Source: Chloroflexota bacterium (GTDB lineage Bacteria; Chloroflexota; UBA11872; VXOZ01). Taken from it: DNA of 64,000 bases. Position numbers and translations under genes: made by a program. Position 1 is the first letter of the stretch; every line of letters starts with the position of its first letter. Positions 7,644-31,352 of the stretch are shown in pieces. The stretch is taken from positions 1,888,001 through 1,952,000 of the forward strand of contig OZ219802.1 in NCBI GenBank assembly GCA_964291655.2, written 5' to 3'. The notes beneath the pieces are model-generated. The model had not been told where the DNA came from and ran no database searches. It saw only the letters and a list, made by a program, of their open reading frames with translations.

Positions 7644-8142
7644 CGTTGCCGTACTCAGTTGCCGTGCGTTGTTTTCCGCGACCTACGCCCATGTTGTGGC
7701 TATGGGAATTGGGCAAGGGTTGTGCAGGCTGCTTGGTTGCCTGTATGGATTTACCGATTCTAGCGCGGCGGGTAGGTGGTTTCAAGGAGCAGCGGTGCGA
7801 GCGGGCGGGCGTGAAGGGCTGAATCGCTGCCATTACTGTCCGAGGGATGTGCTTTGCTGTATCCCGGAATGAGGCGGACCCCTGCTAGGGCCGCGGGGTT
7901 GGTTCTGGCTCGGTGGTGTAAAATGTCACCAACGGTCGTAGACCCTGAAGCACGATTGGATTGTCTCGAGTTGGACGGGAGCAGGCGGAAGGGCGCGTGC
8001 TCGTTTCCATTTCGAGTTAGGAGGCGGGGGACAAGCCCCCGCGCTACCTGAAGCCGGATTTGCAGTTGCAAAAGCATATTGACCGTAATTTGAGGTCAGA
8101 CACTGAGGTGACACAAGCCAGCAAAGTTGGGAGGAAATTAGC

Positions 8143-9120
8143 ATGGCAAGCACGCAGATGTTGTCGGAAGTGATCACCGATTCTCGGGCGTGGACCGCGC
8201 AGTCAATCGATGGGGGCGAGTCGTGGCGCTACACTCTGACGGCGGACTGCTTTGCGGAGCTTGACGCCTTTGTCGCACAGCGGCGAGGCCAGTCCCAGCC
8301 GATTACTGAGACGCGGATTGCAAGCGCCGACTTTCCGGCTTGCGCCGCAGTCCTGAACGATGCTGTTGTCGCCTTGGAGAGCGGGCGGGGATTCATTATC
8401 GTCGAGCGGCTGTCGTTCGAGCGGTATTCCCGCGAGGAGGCCCAGATGGTCTATTGGGTCATCGGCCAGCTTCTCGGTGCGCCGTTCGCCCAGGACGTGA
8501 AAGGCACGCTGCTCTATGACGTGCGCGATACCGGGCAGGACGTATCCAAAGGGGCGCGCTTCTCCGTGAGCAACCTGGAGAGCAGTTTTCACATGGACCA
8601 CTGCTTCGGCGACCCCATTCCCGACATTCTCGGTCTGCTCAGCTTGCAGGGGGCGAAGTCCGGCGGCAGGAGCCAGTTCCTCAGCGCGTATACGCTGCAC
8701 AACGAACTGCTCACCAAGTGCCCGGACGCGCTGCCGATCCTCTATGAAAATTTCTACTTCGACCGGCGGGGGCAGTTCAAAGAGGGCGAAAAGCCGGTCT
8801 TCGAAGCGCCAATCTTTCGCTGGGATGCGCAGGGCCTGCACATCCGCTACCTGTACTACTACATTCAGGTGGGGCAAGAGAAGATGGGTGAGCCATTCAG
8901 TCCCGCGCAAGCCAAGGCGCTAGAGGCGGTGGAAGCGACGCTGACCCGCCAAGACCTGCACGTTGAGATGCTGCTCGAGCCGGGCCAGATGCTCTTCACA
9001 AGCAACCATTGGCTGCTGCACAACCGCACCTCTTTTGAAGACTATCCCGAACCGGAGCGGCGGCGGCACCTGGTGCGTCTCTGGTTGAGCAACCGCAACG
9101 GCGCAGTGGCACACCATTAG
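8143..9120 (+). CDS. TauD/TfdA-family Fe(II)/2-oxoglutarate dioxygenase
   Basis: HMD facial-triad motif, LLHNRTSFED and RRHLVRLWL; RBS GGAGGA. Confidence 0.88.
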   Translation: MASTQMLSEVITDSRAWTAQSIDGGESWRYTLTADCFAELDAFVAQRRGQSQPITETRIASADFPACAAVLNDAVVALESGRGFIIVERLSFERYSREEAQMVYWVIGQLLGAPFAQDVKGTLLYDVRDTGQDVSKGARFSVSNLESSFHMDHCFGDPIPDILGLLSLQGAKSGGRSQFLSAYTLHNELLTKCPDALPILYENFYFDRRGQFKEGEKPVFEAPIFRWDAQGLHIRYLYYYIQVGQEKMGEPFSPAQAKALEAVEATLTRQDLHVEMLLEPGQMLFTSNHWLLHNRTSFEDYPEPERRRHLVRLWLSNRNGAVAHH

Positions 9121-23060: not shown

Positions 23061-25055
23061 CTATACCGCGTCGGAGACGGCATCGGGTTGCTGTGCAACC
23101 CGTTCCTGGTGGACGTGCGGGGGCAGCTTGCTGGGGGCGGCTACGTAGCGGGCGGCGTTCACCACCACCGCCACTGAGCCGAGGTTATGTGTCAGCGCGG
23201 CAGCGATAGGGCCGAGCACTCCGGTCGCCGCCAAGGCGATACCGGCGAGGTTCCAGACCAGCGCGAAAAGGAGATTCTGCTTGATGCCGCGCAGGGTCAT
23301 CTGGCTGATGGCAATCGCTGTGGGCAGTTGGCCGATGTCGCCGCGCATCAGGGCGATGTCGGCGGTTTCCGCCGCTACCGCCGTGCCGGTGCCGCCCATC
23401 ACAATGCCGAGATCGGCAGCCGCCAGCGCCGGGGCATCGTTCACGCCGTCGCCGGCCATTGCTACCCGTCTGCCGTCGTCCCGTGCGCCCCGTATCCATT
23501 CAACCTTGCCTTGCGGCAGCAAGCGGGCGTGCCAATCGTCGATGCCCACGGTCTCTGCCAGGCGCTTTGCCTCTGGCTGACGGTCGCCGGTGAGCATCAC
23601 AACCTGCCGGATGCCAAGCGCGTGGAGGTGCTCGATTGCTTGCGCCGCCGCCGGTCGCACGGTATCGGCAAACTGTATCCAGCCGCAAAAAGCTCCTTCC
23701 ACAGCAACTAACAGCAAGCTGCCGTCATGCGGTGCGGCCTCCTGCGGCGGCACGCCCGCGACGCCGTTCTCGCGGAGAAGTTCTCCGGTGCCGACCAGGA
23801 CGTGCTGTTGCCCGACGCGTCCTTCCACCCCTCTGCCCGGATACGCGCGAAAGTCTGTTGCAGACGGCAGATCGAGGGTTTGTGCAGCGGCATGACTCAC
23901 GAGCGCTTTGCCGAGCGGGTGTTCGGAATAGCGTTCCACCGCCGCCGCGAGCGTAAGCAGAGTCTCCGCCGCCATGCCCTCAGCCGGGATAACCTGCTGT
24001 ACCACGGGCGTGCCGAGGGTGAGCGTCCCGGTCTTGTCCACTGCTACGGTATCCACAGCGCCGGCGGCCTCGAAGCGGGCGCCGCCCTTGATGAGAATGC
24101 CCTGCCGCGCCGCGTTCGCTACCCCGGCGACAATAGCGGTAGGCGTCGCCAGGACCAGCGCGCACGGGCAGGCGATGATCAACACCGCCAGCGCCGCGCT
24201 GAGATTACCGGAAATCAGCCACGTGGCGCTGGAGACCAGCAGAATGGCAGGCGTAAAGTACTTGGCGTAGCGATCCGCCGCGCGCACGATCGGGGCGCGC
24301 TCCTCTTCAAGGGCGTCCAGCAGCCGTCCAATCTGCCCCACATACGCATTCTCACCCACCGCTTCCGTGCGAATCGTAAGCGCGCCGTCCTGGTTCAACG
24401 TACCCGCATACACGCGGTGCCCCGGCTCCTTGTGCACAGGGAGCGATTCACCGGTGACCAGCGTCTCGTCAACTGCCGCCGTGCCCGCAATTACCACGCC
24501 GTCCACCGGCAGGCGCTCACCCGGCTTCACCAGCACCCTGTCGCCTGGCTGCAAAGCGTCCGTGCTGACCTCTTCAATCTCGTCGCCCTCCAGGCGATGG
24601 GCATGCTCGGGCTGGAGCTCGGCCAAGTGTTCCAGCGCCGCCGTGGCGCGCTGGCTGGTGGCCTCCTCGAGCAGCTGGCCGAAGATCATCATGAAGACCA
24701 CGAGTCCGGCGGAGAGGTACTCACCGACCAGCACCGAGGCGATGACGGCAATGCTCACGAGTTCATCCACGTTCACCTGCCGCTGCCGCATGCCCTGCAG
24801 CGCACCCCACACGATGCCAGTTCCGCCAATAACAACCGCCGCCAGCGCCAAGCCCACGGCCAGGTAGGACTGGCCTTCCGGCACCAGTGATATCGTCAGT
24901 GTCTGGCCCAGATGGAAGTGCTGTGCAGCTCCTCCCTCGCTCGTGAAGGAGACCAGCCAGGCGGCGAGAATCAAGACACCCGTCGCCGCTACGGTGCGAA
25001 AGTGCGACGACCGCACCACGGGGCCGTATGTCTGCCAGAGATTGGAGAAAGGCAT
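23061..25055 (-). CDS. Heavy-metal-translocating P1B-type ATPase (ZntA/CadA-like)
   Basis: TGES, CPCALVLATP, DKTGT, SEHPL, MLTGD, GDGVNDAPAL motifs. Confidence 0.93.
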   Translation of the reverse strand: MPFSNLWQTYGPVVRSSHFRTVAATGVLILAAWLVSFTSEGGAAQHFHLGQTLTISLVPEGQSYLAVGLALAAVVIGGTGIVWGALQGMRQRQVNVDELVSIAVIASVLVGEYLSAGLVVFMMIFGQLLEEATSQRATAALEHLAELQPEHAHRLEGDEIEEVSTDALQPGDRVLVKPGERLPVDGVVIAGTAAVDETLVTGESLPVHKEPGHRVYAGTLNQDGALTIRTEAVGENAYVGQIGRLLDALEEERAPIVRAADRYAKYFTPAILLVSSATWLISGNLSAALAVLIIACPCALVLATPTAIVAGVANAARQGILIKGGARFEAAGAVDTVAVDKTGTLTLGTPVVQQVIPAEGMAAETLLTLAAAVERYSEHPLGKALVSHAAAQTLDLPSATDFRAYPGRGVEGRVGQQHVLVGTGELLRENGVAGVPPQEAAPHDGSLLLVAVEGAFCGWIQFADTVRPAAAQAIEHLHALGIRQVVMLTGDRQPEAKRLAETVGIDDWHARLLPQGKVEWIRGARDDGRRVAMAGDGVNDAPALAAADLGIVMGGTGTAVAAETADIALMRGDIGQLPTAIAISQMTLRGIKQNLLFALVWNLAGIALAATGVLGPIAAALTHNLGSVAVVVNAARYVAAPSKLPPHVHQERVAQQPDAVSDAV

Positions 25056-25300
25056 CGTCTACACCTGCTGAATTCTATTCACGCGCATCACAGTCAGCCT
25101 GGGACGCCGGTTTTGCAGCCGCGGAGTCGAAACAAGGCTATCCTGAAATGGCGATTGACCTTCGGTACGGCCGCGGCACAAAGCGACTGCTTCTCTACAG
25201 CCAATAGACTATATGGAATCTGGGGGCGCACGCAATCCCTGCCCTGCAAACGGCCTCATCCACTGCCGATCCTTGTCAGACATTCTACACCGGTGCACTT

Positions 25301-25329
25301 TTGACATGCGCGGCCAACATCGCTATACT
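25301..25329 (+). promoter_or_regulatory. Sigma70-type promoter upstream of the pheS leader
   Basis: TTGACA (25301-25306), 17-bp spacer, TATACT (25324-25329). Confidence 0.82.
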
Positions 25330-25335
25330 ATTGTC

Positions 25336-25533
25336 TTGCAAAGTAGCATAGCCCTTGCTTTAGGGGCATTTCCCAACAATACCTGTGGCGAGGGGCAATT
25401 AATTTATCCGTGGGCGTGGCAGTTTACGGGCCCGGAGAGCCGGGCAAAGTCTAGGCGAACCACGGAGACGTAGCCTAGCAGATCACCCGCCTTTCCGGCT
25501 GAACAGAAAGTGTTTACCCGCTTTCTGTTTTTT
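25336..25533 (+). ncRNA. Putative structured leader RNA / sRNA of unknown family
   Basis: Between promoter and terminator; stems TCCGTGG/CCACGGA, GCCCGG/CCGGGC, CTAGGC/GCCTAG (pseudoknot topology). Confidence 0.55.
25502..25533 (+). terminator. Intrinsic terminator / attenuator ahead of pheS
   Basis: AACAGAAAGTG-tttacc-CGCTTTCTGTT followed by TTTT. Confidence 0.75.
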
Positions 25534-25583
25534 GTTTGTGAAACGCAGCATTACTATATCTTGAAACGTAGGAACGGCAACCG

Positions 25584-26654
25584 ATGGCAGACGAGACGAC
25601 GGCAGCGGACATCGTAGCGCAACTTGAAGCGCTGGAGCGCGAAGCGCAGGCGCAACTCGCGGAGTGCGCCGCGGAGGCAGACCTGAGTGATTGGCGTACC
25701 ACGTACCTGGGCCGCAGCGGCAAAGTTACCCAACTCTTACGCGGTCTGGGCGGCCTGCCTAAAGAGGAACGCCCCCGCGTAGGCCAACTCGCCAACACGG
25801 TGAAGGGTCGGCTGGCGGAGGCGTTGGAGGCGCAGCAGGCGCTGCTCAAGCGCGGCCAGCACGCCGAAACCCTAAAGTCAGAGGCCCTTGACGTCACGCT
25901 CCCCGGCGATCCGGTACGCATGGGACAGCTCCATCCCACCACACAGGTGCTCAACGCGATTCTGGGCATCTTCGAGCGCATGGGGTTCCAGGTGGTGGAG
26001 GGGCCTGAGGTGGAGTGGGACCACTATAACTTCGCGATGCTCAATATTCCCTCCGACCATCCCGCCCGCGATATGTGGGATACGTTCTACGTGGATGCGG
26101 ATGCAACCAAGAACTTCGGCTCCATGCTGCTGCGCACGCACACCTCGCCGGTGCAAATTCGCGTAATGGAAAACACGCCGCCGCCTGTGCGCATCGTGGC
26201 GCCGGGGCGCGTCTATCGCAACGAGGCTACCGACGCCAGCCACGAAGCAATCTTCTACCAAGTGGAAGGTCTCGCCGTGGACGAGCGGACGAACATGGGG
26301 GACCTGAAAGGCGTGCTCACGGCATTCGCACGCGACCTCTTCGGCGTCAATACGCGCGTGCGCTTCAATTGCTCATACTTTCCGTTTGTAGAGCCGGGAG
26401 CGGAAGTATCCATTAGCTGCCACGTTTGCGGCGGTGACGGTTGCCGCGTCTGCAAGCATACCGGCTGGCTGGAGATTCTCGGCTGCGGCATGGTGCACCC
26501 GAACGTGCTCGAGGCCGTAAACTACGATCCCGCCCGCTACTCCGGCTTTGCGTTCGGCATGGGCGTTGAGCGCATTGCCATGCTCAAGTACGGCATCGAT
26601 GACATTCGCTACTTCTACAACAACGACATCCGCTTCCTTCAGCAGTTTCGCTGA
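25584..26654 (+). CDS. pheS: Phenylalanine-tRNA ligase alpha subunit
   Basis: HPARDMWDTFY, LLRTHTSPVQIR, FYQVEGL, YFPFVEP, GCGMVHP, GFAFGMGVER. Confidence 0.98.
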   Translation: MADETTAADIVAQLEALEREAQAQLAECAAEADLSDWRTTYLGRSGKVTQLLRGLGGLPKEERPRVGQLANTVKGRLAEALEAQQALLKRGQHAETLKSEALDVTLPGDPVRMGQLHPTTQVLNAILGIFERMGFQVVEGPEVEWDHYNFAMLNIPSDHPARDMWDTFYVDADATKNFGSMLLRTHTSPVQIRVMENTPPPVRIVAPGRVYRNEATDASHEAIFYQVEGLAVDERTNMGDLKGVLTAFARDLFGVNTRVRFNCSYFPFVEPGAEVSISCHVCGGDGCRVCKHTGWLEILGCGMVHPNVLEAVNYDPARYSGFAFGMGVERIAMLKYGIDDIRYFYNNDIRFLQQFR

Positions 26655-26877
26655 AGTCGTTCAACACTTTCGTTGAGGTCCTGCAACAGATCTGTTGACA
26701 CTATGAAATAGCTGCGTTGACGCAGAATCTGATGTTCTCGATCTTATGCAAAGCGCAACGGCAGCACTGAAAGCAACGTACCCAGCGCCGCGCGCGAGGC
26801 GCACTTTAGTCCGAATACGATAGACGTGGAGAGCAACGTCCGTTGGAGCGGACGCTCCCCGGGAGGTTCTTGATCGC

Positions 26878-29343
26878 ATGCGTGTATCACTCCGCTGGCT
26901 CGAAGAGTATGTAGCAATCAAGCTACCGGCTGAAGAGTTGGCACATGAGTTGACGATGGCCGGCATAGAGGTCGCACAGGTCATTCAGATCGGCGACTTC
27001 TGGCAGAACACGTTTGTCGGCACGGTCGTGGACCTCAAGGGCCATCCCAACGCCGATCGCCTGCAGCTTGTCACCGTTGATTACGGGCAAGAAGAACAAC
27101 CCACGTTCGTAACCGGCGCTATGAACATCGCCAAAGGCGATAAGGTGCCGGTGGCGCTGCTTGGCGCCGTGCTCAATGATGCCTATAGCGATACGCCACA
27201 GCGCATCGAGCTTAAGCCGGTCGTCCTGCGGGGAGTCAAGTCCGAAGGCATGGTCTGCTCTGCCAGAGAGCTTGGCTTGGGCGAAGACCATGAAGGCATT
27301 CTGATCCTCGATGCCGAGGCGCCGGTGGGCACGCCGCTCCAAGAATACATGGGCGATACAATCCTGGAACTTGATCTCAAGCCCAACCGCAGCGATTGTC
27401 TCGCTATGATTAACGTGGCCCGGGAAGTTTCGGCAATTACGGGAGAACGCTTGCGCCAACCGGCAACGCACAGAATAGACACGCCAACGCTTCCCGTGGT
27501 GCGTGTGGATATCAAAGAGCCGAAGTTCTGTGCGCGCTATGCGGCGGGCGTTGTCATAGACGTGACGATTGGGGCGTCGCCGCGCTGGATGCAAGAGCGG
27601 CTGCTGGCAGCAGGCATGCGTCCCATCAATAACATCGTGGACATCACAAATTACGTGATGCTGGAGTTTGGGCAACCGCTCCACGCCTTCGACTACGACA
27701 AGGTAACGGACGGAAACATCATCGTCCGGCGCGCTCACTTGGGCGAGAAACTAACCACCCTGGACGGAGAAGAGCGGACATTGGCTGCCGGCATGCTGGT
27801 CATCGCCGACCCCAACGGTCCTATCGCCCTGGCAGGCGTGATGGGCGGTCTGGATTCAGAAGTGACCGAGCGGACCACGCGCATCCTGTTGGAATCCGCC
27901 AGCTTCCACGCTACGTCGATCCGCCGCACGCGGCAAGCGCTTAACTTACCCAGCGAGGCATCCCGAAGGTTCGAACAGGGCGTGCCGCCGGAATTAGCTC
28001 CCATTGCGCGGGATCGCGCCATCGAACTCATCGTCGAGATTGCCGGCGGACGCGCCCGCAGCCACGCCGCGGATTCTTACGTCCGCCCGCAGCAACGCCC
28101 GGAGATTGAACTCTCCGAAGAGGACATTTCGCGGCTGCTCGGCATGGACATTCCCTTGACGACAGCCGCCGAGAAACTCCGGCCCTTGGGCTTCTCGTAT
28201 CGCCGTCAGAACAGCCGGCTGCACGTCACGGTGCCGCTCCACCGGCTGGACGTAAGCTGCTCAGCCGACCTCGTTGAGGAAGTCGCCCGCCTGGTAGGCT
28301 ACGACAACATTCCCACCACTATGCCGTCCGGCCCTTTGCCGGAAGCAGAGCCCGTACCGCTGCGCACGTGGACGGACCGGGCCAAACAGATACTGGTGGG
28401 CGCGGGCTTTGCGGAAGCGATCACTTACACGCTGACGAATGCGGCGCGGATGGGTCGCCTCTTGCCAAAGGGGGTGGCGGCTGAATTGCCCGACGGCCTG
28501 GCGCGCGTCGTGGCCGAATCAGTGCTGCCGCTGCACTCCTCTCCCCTTGACCTCAAGAACCCCTTTACTTCGGAGGCCAGCGCGCTGCGCACCGTGACGC
28601 TCGCGGGTCTGCTGGAGACGCTGGCAGGCAACCTCCGCCGCCAGACAAGCGACGTGCACCTCTTTGAGATAGCGCCCGTATTCCTCCCCGTGCGCTCCAA
28701 GCTGCCGGAGGAACGCCGCCTGCTCACCGCCGTGATGGGAGAATTCCGCACCGAGCAGTGGGGCGCCCGCGCCGAGAATACTTTCTATACGATCAAGGGC
28801 GCGGCGGAACAGGTTCTGCGGCAGTTCGGTATCACGGACTATGGCTTCGCGCCGGTGGAGCATCCGACATTTCATCCCTACCGGGCCGCGGCGGTGACCG
28901 TGCGCCAGGACGAAGAAGATCACGTGGTAGGCATTGTGGGCGAAATCAACGCAGAGGTGAGCGCCGCATTCGATATCGATCAACGGGCGCTGGCCTTGGT
29001 GCTCAATCTCCAGGAGTTGGTGTCTCTGGCCCGCGCCACACCGGTGTTCACGCCGCCGTCACGTCATCCTGCCGTGGTGCAAGACCTGGCGATTGTGCTG
29101 GATGCGGAAATCTCCGCCGAGCGGGTGGTAGAGGAAGTGCGCGGGGCAGGCGGCGATCTGCTGGAGAGCGTCGATCTCTTCGATGTCTACCAGGGCCCGC
29201 AAGTCCCCGACGGCAAGCGCAGCCTGGCCTACACCCTCACCTTCCGCGCCCCCGAACGCACGCTCAATGACGCCGAAGTAACCACCATCCGCGACCGTAT
29301 CATCGCCAAGCTGCAGGCATCCCTCAACGCCACATTGCGTTAG
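26878..29343 (+). CDS. pheT: Phenylalanine-tRNA ligase beta subunit
   Basis: MRVSLRWL, HPNADRL, LRGVKSEGMVCS, PNRSDCL, GQPLHAFD, DLVEEVARLVGY, LFDVYQG...KRSLAY. Confidence 0.98.
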   Translation: MRVSLRWLEEYVAIKLPAEELAHELTMAGIEVAQVIQIGDFWQNTFVGTVVDLKGHPNADRLQLVTVDYGQEEQPTFVTGAMNIAKGDKVPVALLGAVLNDAYSDTPQRIELKPVVLRGVKSEGMVCSARELGLGEDHEGILILDAEAPVGTPLQEYMGDTILELDLKPNRSDCLAMINVAREVSAITGERLRQPATHRIDTPTLPVVRVDIKEPKFCARYAAGVVIDVTIGASPRWMQERLLAAGMRPINNIVDITNYVMLEFGQPLHAFDYDKVTDGNIIVRRAHLGEKLTTLDGEERTLAAGMLVIADPNGPIALAGVMGGLDSEVTERTTRILLESASFHATSIRRTRQALNLPSEASRRFEQGVPPELAPIARDRAIELIVEIAGGRARSHAADSYVRPQQRPEIELSEEDISRLLGMDIPLTTAAEKLRPLGFSYRRQNSRLHVTVPLHRLDVSCSADLVEEVARLVGYDNIPTTMPSGPLPEAEPVPLRTWTDRAKQILVGAGFAEAITYTLTNAARMGRLLPKGVAAELPDGLARVVAESVLPLHSSPLDLKNPFTSEASALRTVTLAGLLETLAGNLRRQTSDVHLFEIAPVFLPVRSKLPEERRLLTAVMGEFRTEQWGARAENTFYTIKGAAEQVLRQFGITDYGFAPVEHPTFHPYRAAAVTVRQDEEDHVVGIVGEINAEVSAAFDIDQRALALVLNLQELVSLARATPVFTPPSRHPAVVQDLAIVLDAEISAERVVEEVRGAGGDLLESVDLFDVYQGPQVPDGKRSLAYTLTFRAPERTLNDAEVTTIRDRIIAKLQASLNATLR

Positions 29344-29401: not shown

Positions 29402-30055
29402 TCACTCAATTCCGGCGAGCTTACGAATCCCGTCGCGAAAAACCTGGAAACTCTTAGACTGGTTCCTCTCAACATCCATGTGCGGCGCGATGTTGCGGGC
29501 CCAATCACATTTTGCCTCCCCTGTTACCGGGTAGCCTTCTCGTTTCAATCGCGCTGCTCCGCCTGGATGGATTGCGTCCGCAAGGACCTCCCACGTGCCG
29601 CAGATACTGTCTTGCTCGTAACGGTTTAGAACTGGTTCTCTCGCTTTAGGATACGCGGCCTTCACGGCATTGGGGTCTCCCAGCAACCACGCCTCGCCTT
29701 CCTCGATAGCAATTCTAAAGAGCGTCGTTGGGCGCGGATAACATGAATACAGGACATTTAACAACTCTCTCTTAAGTGTCATGCAGTCGCGCCTGTCCAG
29801 GTCAACAACCACAATTACCGCAAAGCCCTCTTGCAAACTTTTACCGTAGCCCCTCAATACCTGTGGGAGTTGATTCAGTAGTAGCCGTTTCTGTTTGTCT
29901 ACCGATTCACGTAAGTCAGTTGGCAAGCGGCCTATACCCTTGTAGGCATGCACTCTCCAGGAATGAACCGAAGGGTCAGTACCAAGAATCCGCTCCAGTA
30001 TTTGCTCAAGTGCAATGCTGCCCGATGCATCTTCAACCAGCACCTCAAAGTGCAT
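29402..30055 (-). CDS. DUF4276-like (TOPRIM-type) protein
   Basis: MHFEVLVEDASG, VVVDLD, IEEGEAWLLGD, NQSKSF motifs; start placed at ATG 30055, overlapping the ATPase 3' end. Confidence 0.72.
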   Translation of the reverse strand: MHFEVLVEDASGSIALEQILERILGTDPSVHSWRVHAYKGIGRLPTDLRESVDKQKRLLLNQLPQVLRGYGKSLQEGFAVIVVVDLDRRDCMTLKRELLNVLYSCYPRPTTLFRIAIEEGEAWLLGDPNAVKAAYPKAREPVLNRYEQDSICGTWEVLADAIHPGGAARLKREGYPVTGEAKCDWARNIAPHMDVERNQSKSFQVFRDGIRKLAGIE

Positions 30056-31352
30056 TCGGCTCTCTCCACTCCAGGTAGTCACTGTACCAGAGACCTCCAA
30101 GCGGCAAGCCCTCGTCCACCATGGAAATGACAATCGGGTCGTCGCTGGCTCGTCGGATAGTGGCAAATCCATCCGCTTTTTTTTCTAAGACCCAGGTTTC
30201 ATCCGGCCTTAGTGCGTCAACGAAGTAAGGCTGATGCGTTGTAACGAAGATTTGAGGTGCGTTTTTTCTCCCAGTAGCATGTCGGCGAAACTCTTGAGCC
30301 AGTATCTCAAGCAGCCTATGGTAAAGGCCGTTCTCGGGCTCTTCAATGCAAATGAAAGGCGGCGGATGTGGATCTTCTAGCATGAGGAGATAGGCAAAGA
30401 CCTTGAGCGTGCCGTCGGACATTTGCTGTGCGTAGAAGGGATCTAAAAAACCTCGGTCACTAAAGCGCAGCAACAATCGCCCATCAGGGCTCCGTTCCGT
30501 TTCTACTTGCTTGATGCCGGGAATACGTCCAGCGATTCGTGCTAGAATTCGCTCGAACCTGTCTGGATGTTCTCTTTCCATAAATTGGACTACGTTGCCA
30601 AGATTGTCTCCATGCGCGTTCAATCGCCTTTGCGGGCCCGCCAAAGGCAGACTGCGGGCGGCGTCCGGTGTAAAATAGCTCAAGTACCACCCTTCAATAA
30701 ACTGACGAAATGCAGCAATCCTGGGATGCTGTTTTAGGGCACCAAGAGTTGAAATGCCAAGCCTACGTTTGTCCTGAAGCTCTACAAACTCAGTTTCCGC
30801 CTTCTCCTCACCTGCCAATTCACGCATGAATTCAACTAAGTCGATCCTAACTGTCCCATCTTCATCCACTTGTCGTCCTTGCGCATCACCCTTCCAGGCC
30901 ACGCCTACACCCTCGTTCATCATCAAGAATGAAAAAGGCCAACCACGTCTTTGCCCCTTACGACGTTGGCGCAAACGCTCGCGAGCTACATACGGGCGCC
31001 CCGAATCATCCAGATCAATTGCAACTTCATAGGTTATCGGCCGCGCTCTTGTCTCTTCCCTGTAGTAGATCGCGAACTCAATTGGCTCACTACTTCCTTG
31101 CGCGCGAATTCGCTCGAAGCCACCTCGCCCACTCGCATCGCATGCCTCTTCGATGCCCAGTTTGAGGCAGTCTGCCAAGAAGCCAAAGGCATCAAAAAGG
31201 GAACTCTTGCCCACACCATTCTTGCCAATCACCGCCGTCATGGGAGTCAGTGGTTGCGCAGCCTGAGTATTCCAGAGCTTTCCAAGTGTAATATCCTTGA
31301 GTACCCTATAGTTTTTGATTCTGATCCCCTCTATTCTTGCCATGACGGACAC
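30045..31352 (-). CDS. ABC-type/AAA_21-family ATPase
   Basis: IKNYRVL, Walker A GKNGVGKSS, signature MSDGT, Walker B ICIEEPENGLY, H-loop VTTHQP. Confidence 0.9.
   Translation of the reverse strand: MSVMARIEGIRIKNYRVLKDITLGKLWNTQAAQPLTPMTAVIGKNGVGKSSLFDAFGFLADCLKLGIEEACDASGRGGFERIRAQGSSEPIEFAIYYREETRARPITYEVAIDLDDSGRPYVARERLRQRRKGQRRGWPFSFLMMNEGVGVAWKGDAQGRQVDEDGTVRIDLVEFMRELAGEEKAETEFVELQDKRRLGISTLGALKQHPRIAAFRQFIEGWYLSYFTPDAARSLPLAGPQRRLNAHGDNLGNVVQFMEREHPDRFERILARIAGRIPGIKQVETERSPDGRLLLRFSDRGFLDPFYAQQMSDGTLKVFAYLLMLEDPHPPPFICIEEPENGLYHRLLEILAQEFRRHATGRKNAPQIFVTTHQPYFVDALRPDETWVLEKKADGFATIRRASDDPIVISMVDEGLPLGGLWYSDYLEWREPNAL

Follow-up and report, generated by a model that had tools for sequence, protein, structure and literature searches.

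The 64,000-nucleotide (nt) stretch of a Chloroflexota bacterium genome analysed here (contig OZ219802.1, positions 1,888,001 to 1,952,000), hereafter called the window, carries a structured leader in front of pheS and pheT, the genes for the two chains of phenylalanyl-tRNA synthetase (PheRS), and we read this leader, with a probability of about 0.6, as a ribosome-mediated (leader-peptide) transcription attenuator. A ribosome translating a short open reading frame (ORF) inside the leader would report on the supply of Phe-tRNAPhe to the intrinsic terminator located just before pheS. The translating ribosome is proposed as the sensor because aromatic clusters are found in the ORFs of two related sets of leaders, both placed before the gene for DAHP synthase, namely YYYLF in the same genus and Y-[F/Y]-x-F, conserved codon by codon, in a second set of genomes designated family f4. 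These ORFs indicate a translating ribosome, contrary to the initial annotation of the locus, which had suggested an uncharacterised riboswitch, a protein-binding leader or an independent small RNA (sRNA).

The source genome (3.47 Mb in two contigs, labelled G000 in the comparisons) belongs to an uncultured Chloroflexota genus, and the pheS leader was recovered by blastn in 16/16 other genomes of this genus. The search with R1, a covariance model built from the pheS leader, resulted in exactly two matches per genome in 17/17 genomes, with the pheS leader scoring 127–179 bits and a second copy scoring 19–36 bits (22.5 bits in G000). The second copy precedes the gene for DAHP synthase, with which the pathway to the aromatic amino acids begins. 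In all 17 genomes this copy includes a Shine-Dalgarno (SD)-like sequence, a GTG start and 19 codons reading M-x6-Y-Y-Y-L-F-[T/I/M]-[K/E]-P-E-G-P-A, followed by a stop codon, which is TAA in 14 genomes, TAG in two and TGA in one. The in-frame motif F-T-x-P-E-G-x-A is common to the ORFs of both leaders, and so is an RNA architecture consisting of UUU, a 5–6-nt spacer, the hairpin GCCGG-AGRG(N)-CCGGC and a long-range partner, either CCCUCCGG or CUCUCCGG. The two leaders also have one and the same terminator stem, GCAGAAAG/CUUUCUGC, and are the only two sites of this terminator in the whole genome; the hairpin motif has nine genomic occurrences, and the full architecture is restricted to the pheS and DAHP-synthase leaders.

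Outside the genus, 148 genomes of the phylum yielded two weak matches to R1, one of them unrelated and the other a real one in genome G019 (E 0.025), located 5′ of a DAHP synthase-like ORF which is followed by an EPSP synthase-like ORF, both named from a reading of the sequence together with a protein match. The f4 set, to which this genome belongs, comprises 19 genomes from five genera; the DAHP-synthase gene was found in 19/19 of them and a related leader lies 5′ of it in 19/19. The f4 leader ORFs contain the pattern Y-[F/Y]-x-F-[T/I/M/R]-x-P-[A/V]-x-P-[A/V]-G and end in a stop codon, with the first Tyr present in 18/19 and R-F-A-F found in its place in G019. The conserved triplets TAT, TTC and TTT surround one freely varying codon, as expected of a reading frame and not of an RNA motif. 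The f4 RNA possesses a GGCCGG hairpin 4–5 nt past UUU, a long-range helix (helix B, described below) and a terminator with the stem GCAGAGG/CCUCUGC. No terminator-bearing leader was seen before pheS in any of the 17 f4 loci read (L212–L228), where pheS directly follows a coding region which we take to be that of ribosomal protein L20. As far as these sequences go, it is most likely that an old DAHP-synthase attenuator was copied before pheST in this genus, with only the Phe codon kept. It may be added that the operon context of pheS differs between f4 and the family of this genus.

By blastn, 0/24 genomes from other families of the same class matched the pheS leader, and for the class families f2, f3, f5 and f6 the search relied on the pheS-based covariance model only. 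A pattern scan of metagenomes gave 21 stretches with a single true relative (L168), and nothing consistent was found among small Phe-rich ORFs 5′ of pheS in 80 loci of other lineages. No Rfam family, T-box RF00230 included, matches the window at gathering score or the region 25050–25650 at E ≤ 10, which agrees with the initial annotation in its statement that the leader is not a T-box and answers the Rfam check it had named beforehand. There was likewise no Rfam match at the DAHP-synthase leader locus, T-box included, and none in the regions 5′ of pheS from 20 further loci of Chloroflexota.

The leader ORFs before pheS are of equal length in the 17 genomes, show no frame-breaking gaps, are arranged as GAGGGGC-N5-7-ATG at their beginning and end with TAG in 17/17. 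They contain a single invariant Phe codon, TTT, as well as Trp and Tyr codons kept in most species, though not in all. The statement of the initial annotation that no Phe-rich leader peptide is present thus holds as far as richness in Phe is concerned, but a 23-codon ORF with an SD-like sequence, an invariant TTT and a TAG stop does exist and had been missed. The TTT codon is found also in 17/17 DAHP-synthase leaders of the genus and 19/19 f4 leaders, and in each of the three sets, which together make up 53 leaders (17 pheS, 17 genus DAHP-synthase and 19 f4 DAHP-synthase), UUU and the A after it never vary. Genome-wide, TTT accounts for 36% of Phe codons and TAT for 33% of Tyr codons, so that both are minor codons, and the genus leaders favour such minor, wobble-read codons, with TTT in 17/17 and TAT in 48/51 Tyr codons. 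An SD sequence, a start and an in-frame stop are present in 52/53 leaders, the SD and start of the f4 leaders not having been checked singly; for f4 the in-frame stop was found in 19/19 and in-frame start codons in 16/17 parsed. The distance from the ORF end to the terminator is about 30 nt in the pheS and f4 leaders and about 60 nt in the genus DAHP-synthase leaders. The leader ORF is probably translated.

Both promoter hexamers, placed 17 nt apart, and the terminator are kept in 17/17 leaders of the genus, with the leader length varying from 202 to 228 nt. Two promoter-like sites were found in the region 24800–26000 against a shuffle mean of 0.3. In the core alignment of the 17 genus leaders (A2), for which pairing was obtained with RNAalifold and pair counts, the terminator shows 100% pairing, without variation at 10 of its 12 pairs. 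It sits 50 nt before pheS in this genome, and the distance between its T tract and the pheS ATG is only about 25 nt in 14/16 aligned species. Because of this short distance, transcription of pheST must traverse the terminator in most species, so that the element acts in cis as an attenuator and is no gene of its own. Both elements, promoter and terminator, had been recognised before pheS in the initial annotation and are confirmed here. As regards the other features looked for in an attenuator, an intrinsic terminator does lie directly 5′ of the structural gene, a short ORF with a ribosome-binding site, a start and a stop is situated between promoter and terminator, while codons for the cognate amino acids, of which such attenuators usually have several, are present as YYYLF (17/17) and Y-[F/Y]-x-F (18/19) before DAHP synthase but as a single invariant Phe codon before pheS.

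The whole leader folds better than its shuffled versions (−77 kcal/mol, z −2.98, 3/200 shuffles equally good). The best-supported element is the long-range helix B formed by the strands Y and Z, which had escaped the initial annotation as well: on A2 it is 100% paired with two pairs (six cells) changed on both sides, counted over 10 pairs with the outermost two C-G pairs of CCGG left out. In f4, helix B is 88.9% paired and has four pairs (20 cells) changed on both sides, a level reached by 0/500 shuffles, and slid controls were only 17–45% paired. Homologs with compensatory changes, by which the initial annotation had proposed to judge the structure, are available in both the pheS set and f4. 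Hairpin H, which shares its sequence with strand Y, is 98% paired on A2 and its f4 counterpart 94.7%, in both cases with no covariation. The stems named in the initial annotation are all present in the sequence and its description of a leader capable of forming a pseudoknot is supported, with helix A having 86.6% of cells paired and two pairs changed on both sides, its pairs being broken in 4–5 species, and hairpin C (CTAGGC/GCCTAG) being 94.1% paired with one-sided changes only. The pairing of the SD-like sequence X with Z is 94.1% paired and shows no change on both sides.

The position of helix B is narrowly fixed on either side: its 5′ strand begins 3–6 nt past UUU in 52/53 leaders, and its 3′ strand adjoins the terminator stem directly (0 nt) in 40/53 and at a distance of 1–3 nt in 13/53, with the helix extents taken from RNAduplex and RNAfold. 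If Y, Z and the 5′ and 3′ arms of the terminator are numbered from 1 to 4, the duplex energies are −20 to −29 kcal/mol for 1:2 (helix B), −14 to −17 kcal/mol for 3:4 (the terminator), −1.8 to −7.2 kcal/mol for 2:3 and −5 to −15 kcal/mol for 1:4. As a separate observation, Z (CACCC..CUUUCC, 25484–25498) and the terminator 3′ arm (CUUUCUG, 25516–25528) are pyrimidine tracts recalling the anti-Shine-Dalgarno tail of 16S rRNA, and their purine partners are Y and the SD-like X; a pattern search of the assembly for the 16S rRNA 3′ end, intended for comparison with Z, found none.

Table 1 Features of the pheS leader, the genes behind it and the paralogous DAHP-synthase locus. Positions are those of the window unless a contig or locus is named.
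Feature	Position	Strand	Description
Sigma-70-type promoter	25301-25329	+	TTGACA-17 nt-TATACT; scores 11/12
Variable 5′ part of the leader	25345-25389	+	holds candidate small hairpin 25351-25367; sequence varies between species groups
SD-like sequence X	25390-25396	+	GAGGGGC; 5-7 nt before leader start; nearly invariant; can also pair with Z
Leader ORF	25402-25473	+	23 codons + stop, (M)YPWAWQFTGPESRAKSRRTTET*; TAG stop 25471-25473
Helix A, 5′ strand	25407-25413	+	TCCGTGG, inside ORF; pseudoknot; pairs with CCACGGA 25460-25466
Phe codon	25423-25425	+	TTT, codon 8, proposed sensing codon; invariant in 17/17 pheS leaders
Hairpin H	25430-25445	+	local hairpin GCCCGG-AGAG-CCGGGC; mutually exclusive with helix B
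Helix B, 5′ strand (Y)	25432-25444	+	CCGGAGAG-C-CGGG; pairs with Z 25486-25498 (−20 to −24 kcal/mol)
Hairpin C	25451-25478	+	CTAGGC...GCCTAG; loop 25460-25466 is the helix A 3′ strand
Helix B, 3′ strand (Z)	25486-25498	+	CCCG-C-CTTTCCGG, pyrimidine-rich; terminator stem 2 nt further on
Intrinsic terminator	25501-25536	+	12-bp stem GAACAGAAAGTG/CGCTTTCTGTTT + T tract; terminator scan places it at 25501-25530 with T tract; stem −14.4 kcal/mol
pheS	25584-26654	+	phenylalanyl-tRNA synthetase alpha chain, regulated gene; PF01409 1.2e-103, PF02912
pheT	26878-29343	+	beta chain; B3_4, B5, tRNA_synthFbeta, FDX-ACB and tRNA_bind domains
Paralogous leader	G000:C1:691907-692047 = L105:1501-1641	+	leader ORF MLVAVHNYYYLFTKPEGPA
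DAHP synthase gene behind paralogous leader	L105:1787-2836		349 aa, N-terminal ferredoxin-like domain; PF00793 1.7e-83, NF006421 2.4e-149

The attenuator may be imagined to work as follows. Transcription starting at the promoter would mostly end at the terminator before pheS. With Phe-tRNAPhe scarce, the ribosome would pause with UUU in its A site, so that Y, just downstream, would not be unwound and could pair with Z into helix B, and more RNA polymerases would continue into pheST. With Phe-tRNAPhe plentiful, the ribosome would pass Y and reach the stop codon, no ribosome-bound helix B would arise and the terminator would act, as it would be free to do whenever the ribosome is absent or has passed on. 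We infer the sign of this response, that is, that read-through would go up on Phe scarcity, and also that helix B would be linked to read-through.

The final step would be a steric one, in which the stalled ribosome, held at the base of the terminator stem, would hinder completion of the hairpin, for which RNA polymerase has to be at that very place. The stalled ribosome is placed there because helix B starts 3–6 nt past UUU, about as near as a helix can come to the front of a waiting ribosome, and because its other strand reaches the terminator 5′ arm through 0–3 nt. Such a model would account for both tight spacings, for the covarying helix B and for the missing antiterminator. The steric block is our best guess for the antitermination step and purely inferred, since base pairing alone gives the wrong sign. 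It is doubtful, though conceivable, that helix B serves as the bridge in a new kind of translation-termination coupling, where the ribosome itself would replace the RNA antiterminator and a single sensing codon would be enough.

Several points weigh against the attenuator as proposed. The start codon of the pheS leader is ATG in 16/17 genomes and ATT in G000, the ATT being identical in contigs of four runs from one study, which is possibly the source of this DNA. Known Phe attenuators carry several Phe codons, as against one in the pheS leader. Variation in the leader ORFs is not concentrated at third codon positions (entropy sums over the three positions 13.9/9.5/12.6 and 6.1/8.0/7.8), and several of the seemingly synonymous changes leave the RNA helices just as undisturbed, such as TAA to TGA or TAG opposite U in a hairpin. 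The Tyr codons lie 6–12 nt further upstream and fit the steric idea less well. No conserved alternative partner of the terminator 5′ arm was found besides its own 3′ arm, the only trace being the 4-base-pair (bp) pairing GUUU/AAGU, and the classical 2:3 antiterminator is weak (−1.8 to −7.2 kcal/mol, compared with −14 to −17 kcal/mol for 3:4). This also speaks against the antiterminator of the initial annotation, in which CACCCGCCTTTC was to pair with GAAAG of the terminator 5′ arm; an uninterrupted CUUUC was seen in just two of the 17 genomes, G000 and G008. By eye, neither 1:4 nor 2:3 complementarity was seen in f4. In folding with a masked ribosome footprint, helix B forms when the ribosome is 6–12 nt before UUU while the terminator 5′ arm is largely unpaired, but in G000, the one genome for which the full folding was computed, the terminator was still predicted. 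According to these models base pairing alone would lead to termination in every case and would make the stalled ribosome favour helix B together with the terminator, which is the wrong sign. Finally, no RNA runs containing the pheS-leader locus are listed.

Several further ideas were tried and rejected. The pairing of Y with the terminator 3′ arm is possible in the genus, was not seen in f4 and could not out-compete the local hairpin, and a further pairing, UCUGUU/AGCAGA, is confined to the DAHP-synthase leaders of the genus. A his-type cascade is not conserved, as judged by eye. A +1 frameshift carrying the ribosome through the terminator was also considered, and in 13/17 DAHP-synthase leaders the +1 frame ends before or inside the terminator; in the pheS leaders, the +1 frame relative to the leader ORF (25424–25561) is open from UUU through the terminator in 14/15, probably as a by-product of sequence conservation. 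Hairpin H was compared with the acceptor stem of tRNAPhe, to which it might be a mimic, and the stem of this genome (GCCGAGA/UCUCGGC) turned out to be only loosely similar.

Among the alternatives to an attenuator read by a ribosome, a sensor made of RNA only holds up best but is unlikely. It would be either a riboswitch responding to Phe, or to a metabolite akin to it, or an RNA that binds uncharged tRNAPhe in the manner of a T-box, with the fold of A, B and C acting as the aptamer, UUU as the specifier and ligand binding as the choice between hairpin H and helix B. The compact, covarying fold capable of a pseudoknot would suit such a sensor, as would two regulated genes both concerned with Phe, the invariance of UUU and the following A in the three sets, the G000 leader ORF devoid of ATG and the want of a strong antiterminator, which is reminiscent of T-boxes, whose antiterminator depends on the bound ligand. 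The interior of the fold, however, differs between the pheS, DAHP-synthase (19–36 bits) and f4 leaders, and only H/B, UUU and the terminator are common to the three sets, so that a conserved ligand pocket is not apparent. Besides the lack of an Rfam match, T-box included, neither a UGGN-type bulge nor an antiterminator was seen by eye; in particular, no conserved UGGU of a T-box antiterminator bulge was noticed by eye in the alignment, while the tRNAPhe of the genome ends in ...GGCACCA. A sensor of this kind would also leave unexplained both the SD, start and in-frame stop of 52/53 leaders and the series YYYLF and Y-F-x-F with its one free codon.

The strict conservation of the stem GCAGAAAG/CTTTCTGC of the terminator, which is the same in the two paralogous leaders of all 17 genomes and has 10/12 pairs invariant, goes beyond the needs of a terminator, and hairpin H is invariant too. 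Together with the missing RNA antiterminator, this might be taken as a sign of a trans-acting RNA-binding protein which would bind hairpin H or the terminator stem in the manner of TRAP or PyrR and sense aromatic amino acids or PheRS. In f4, however, the terminator stem (GCAGAGG/CCTCTGC) and the loop of H differ, and therefore the sequence itself is not kept across the wider family. No candidate protein is at hand, no search having been made for one, and the conserved ORF with its aromatic codons would go unexplained, so we regard such a protein as quite improbable. An independent sRNA of about 200 nt or a small-protein gene, with pheS expressed by unregulated leak-through, would agree with the discrete unit bounded by a strong promoter and a strong terminator, the latter predicted under every modelled condition, but it is very hard to credit given that the roughly 25 nt between T tract and ATG in 14/16 aligned species leave no space for a separate promoter, that the unit always accompanies pheS or DAHP synthase and that the leader peptide is not conserved beyond its aromatic codons.

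Regarding the surroundings of the leader, the closest named pheS loci come from metagenome-assembled genomes of Chloroflexota or "Dehalococcoidia". Upstream, a P-type ATPase gene lies on the opposite strand, its coding region ending at 25055, which leaves a gap of 528 nt to pheS. The spacer between pheS and pheT (26655–26877) is unusually long, 223 nt, and just past pheT there is an ORF on the opposite strand (29402–30172, −) coding for a 256-aa protein with a DUF4276 domain. In one species of the comparison (G011, locus L018), the pheS start is separated from the terminator of the leader by an insertion of about 270 nt with internally repeated GC-rich units.

A further leader of the source genome, located before a thrS-like gene named from its translation (G000:C1 ~8000–8400, minus strand, L172), comprises a promoter, an ORF containing I-T-T(-T), and two copies of CGAGAGG with CCTCTCG in between, which make a clear 2:3 antiterminator; it has no Rfam match. 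By its sequence it looks like a textbook attenuator, and as such it counts in favour of ribosome sensing in this genome. The leader was kept, according to blastn, in 15/16 other genomes of the genus, and the T-T pair is present in 11/15 aligned sequences. The genome-wide attenuator scan was insensitive, as it found this leader and missed the DAHP-synthase leader.

Leader-peptide attenuation is a textbook subject for Proteobacteria, and for Chloroflexota no leader-peptide transcription attenuation was found in print, within a coverage that lacks most subscription journals. Should our reading hold, the leaders would define a small aromatic regulon consisting of DAHP synthase and, in one genus, PheRS, as well as a case of a regulatory leader copied to a new gene with its sensing codons trimmed to suit. 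They would also represent a natural attenuator with tight conserved spacing and no RNA antiterminator, which makes a steric action of the ribosome as antiterminator directly testable. For the search for riboswitches they would be a caution that a covarying, pseudoknotted leader without an Rfam match may nonetheless be an attenuator that is translated.

Among known systems, the T-box (RF00230) is similar in having a leader of about 200 nt before an aminoacyl-tRNA synthetase gene, a terminator as the read-out and an invariant cognate codon. The pheS leader differs from it in giving no match to the model, in having neither the T-box sequence nor the antiterminator bulge, and in carrying the codon within a frame that looks translated, complete with SD, start and stop. 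In attenuation of the pyrBI type, a ribosome close behind RNA polymerase blocks the terminator hairpin and the leader ORF runs through the terminator. In the steric form of our model, the ribosome itself would likewise be the antiterminator, whereas the ORF here ends before the terminator and it is helix B that would create the proximity.

Classical attenuators before aminoacyl-tRNA synthetase genes are described for Actinobacteria (PMC1262725). The pheST genes of E. coli are controlled by attenuation by way of a leader peptide (PMC11802643), known as pheM. The arrangement is alike, with a promoter, a short ORF with Phe codon(s), a terminator directly before pheS and the ribosome as the presumed sensor. 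The two are unlike in that there is no sequence kinship between them and the Rfam Phe-leader gives no match, in that a covarying long-range helix adjoins the terminator here and no 2:3 antiterminator is present, and in that the pheS leader has one Phe codon, whereas pheM has several. In C. glutamicum, the leader peptide aroR with Phe-Tyr-Phe precedes the DAHP synthase gene aroF, and read-through is reported to rise on Phe limitation (PMC11802643). The cluster of Phe and Tyr before DAHP synthase is matched here by Y-F-x-F or YYYLF. The Chloroflexota leaders differ in belonging to another phylum and in the recruitment of the module to pheST as well, and the likeness to aroR drawn here is one of the peptides.

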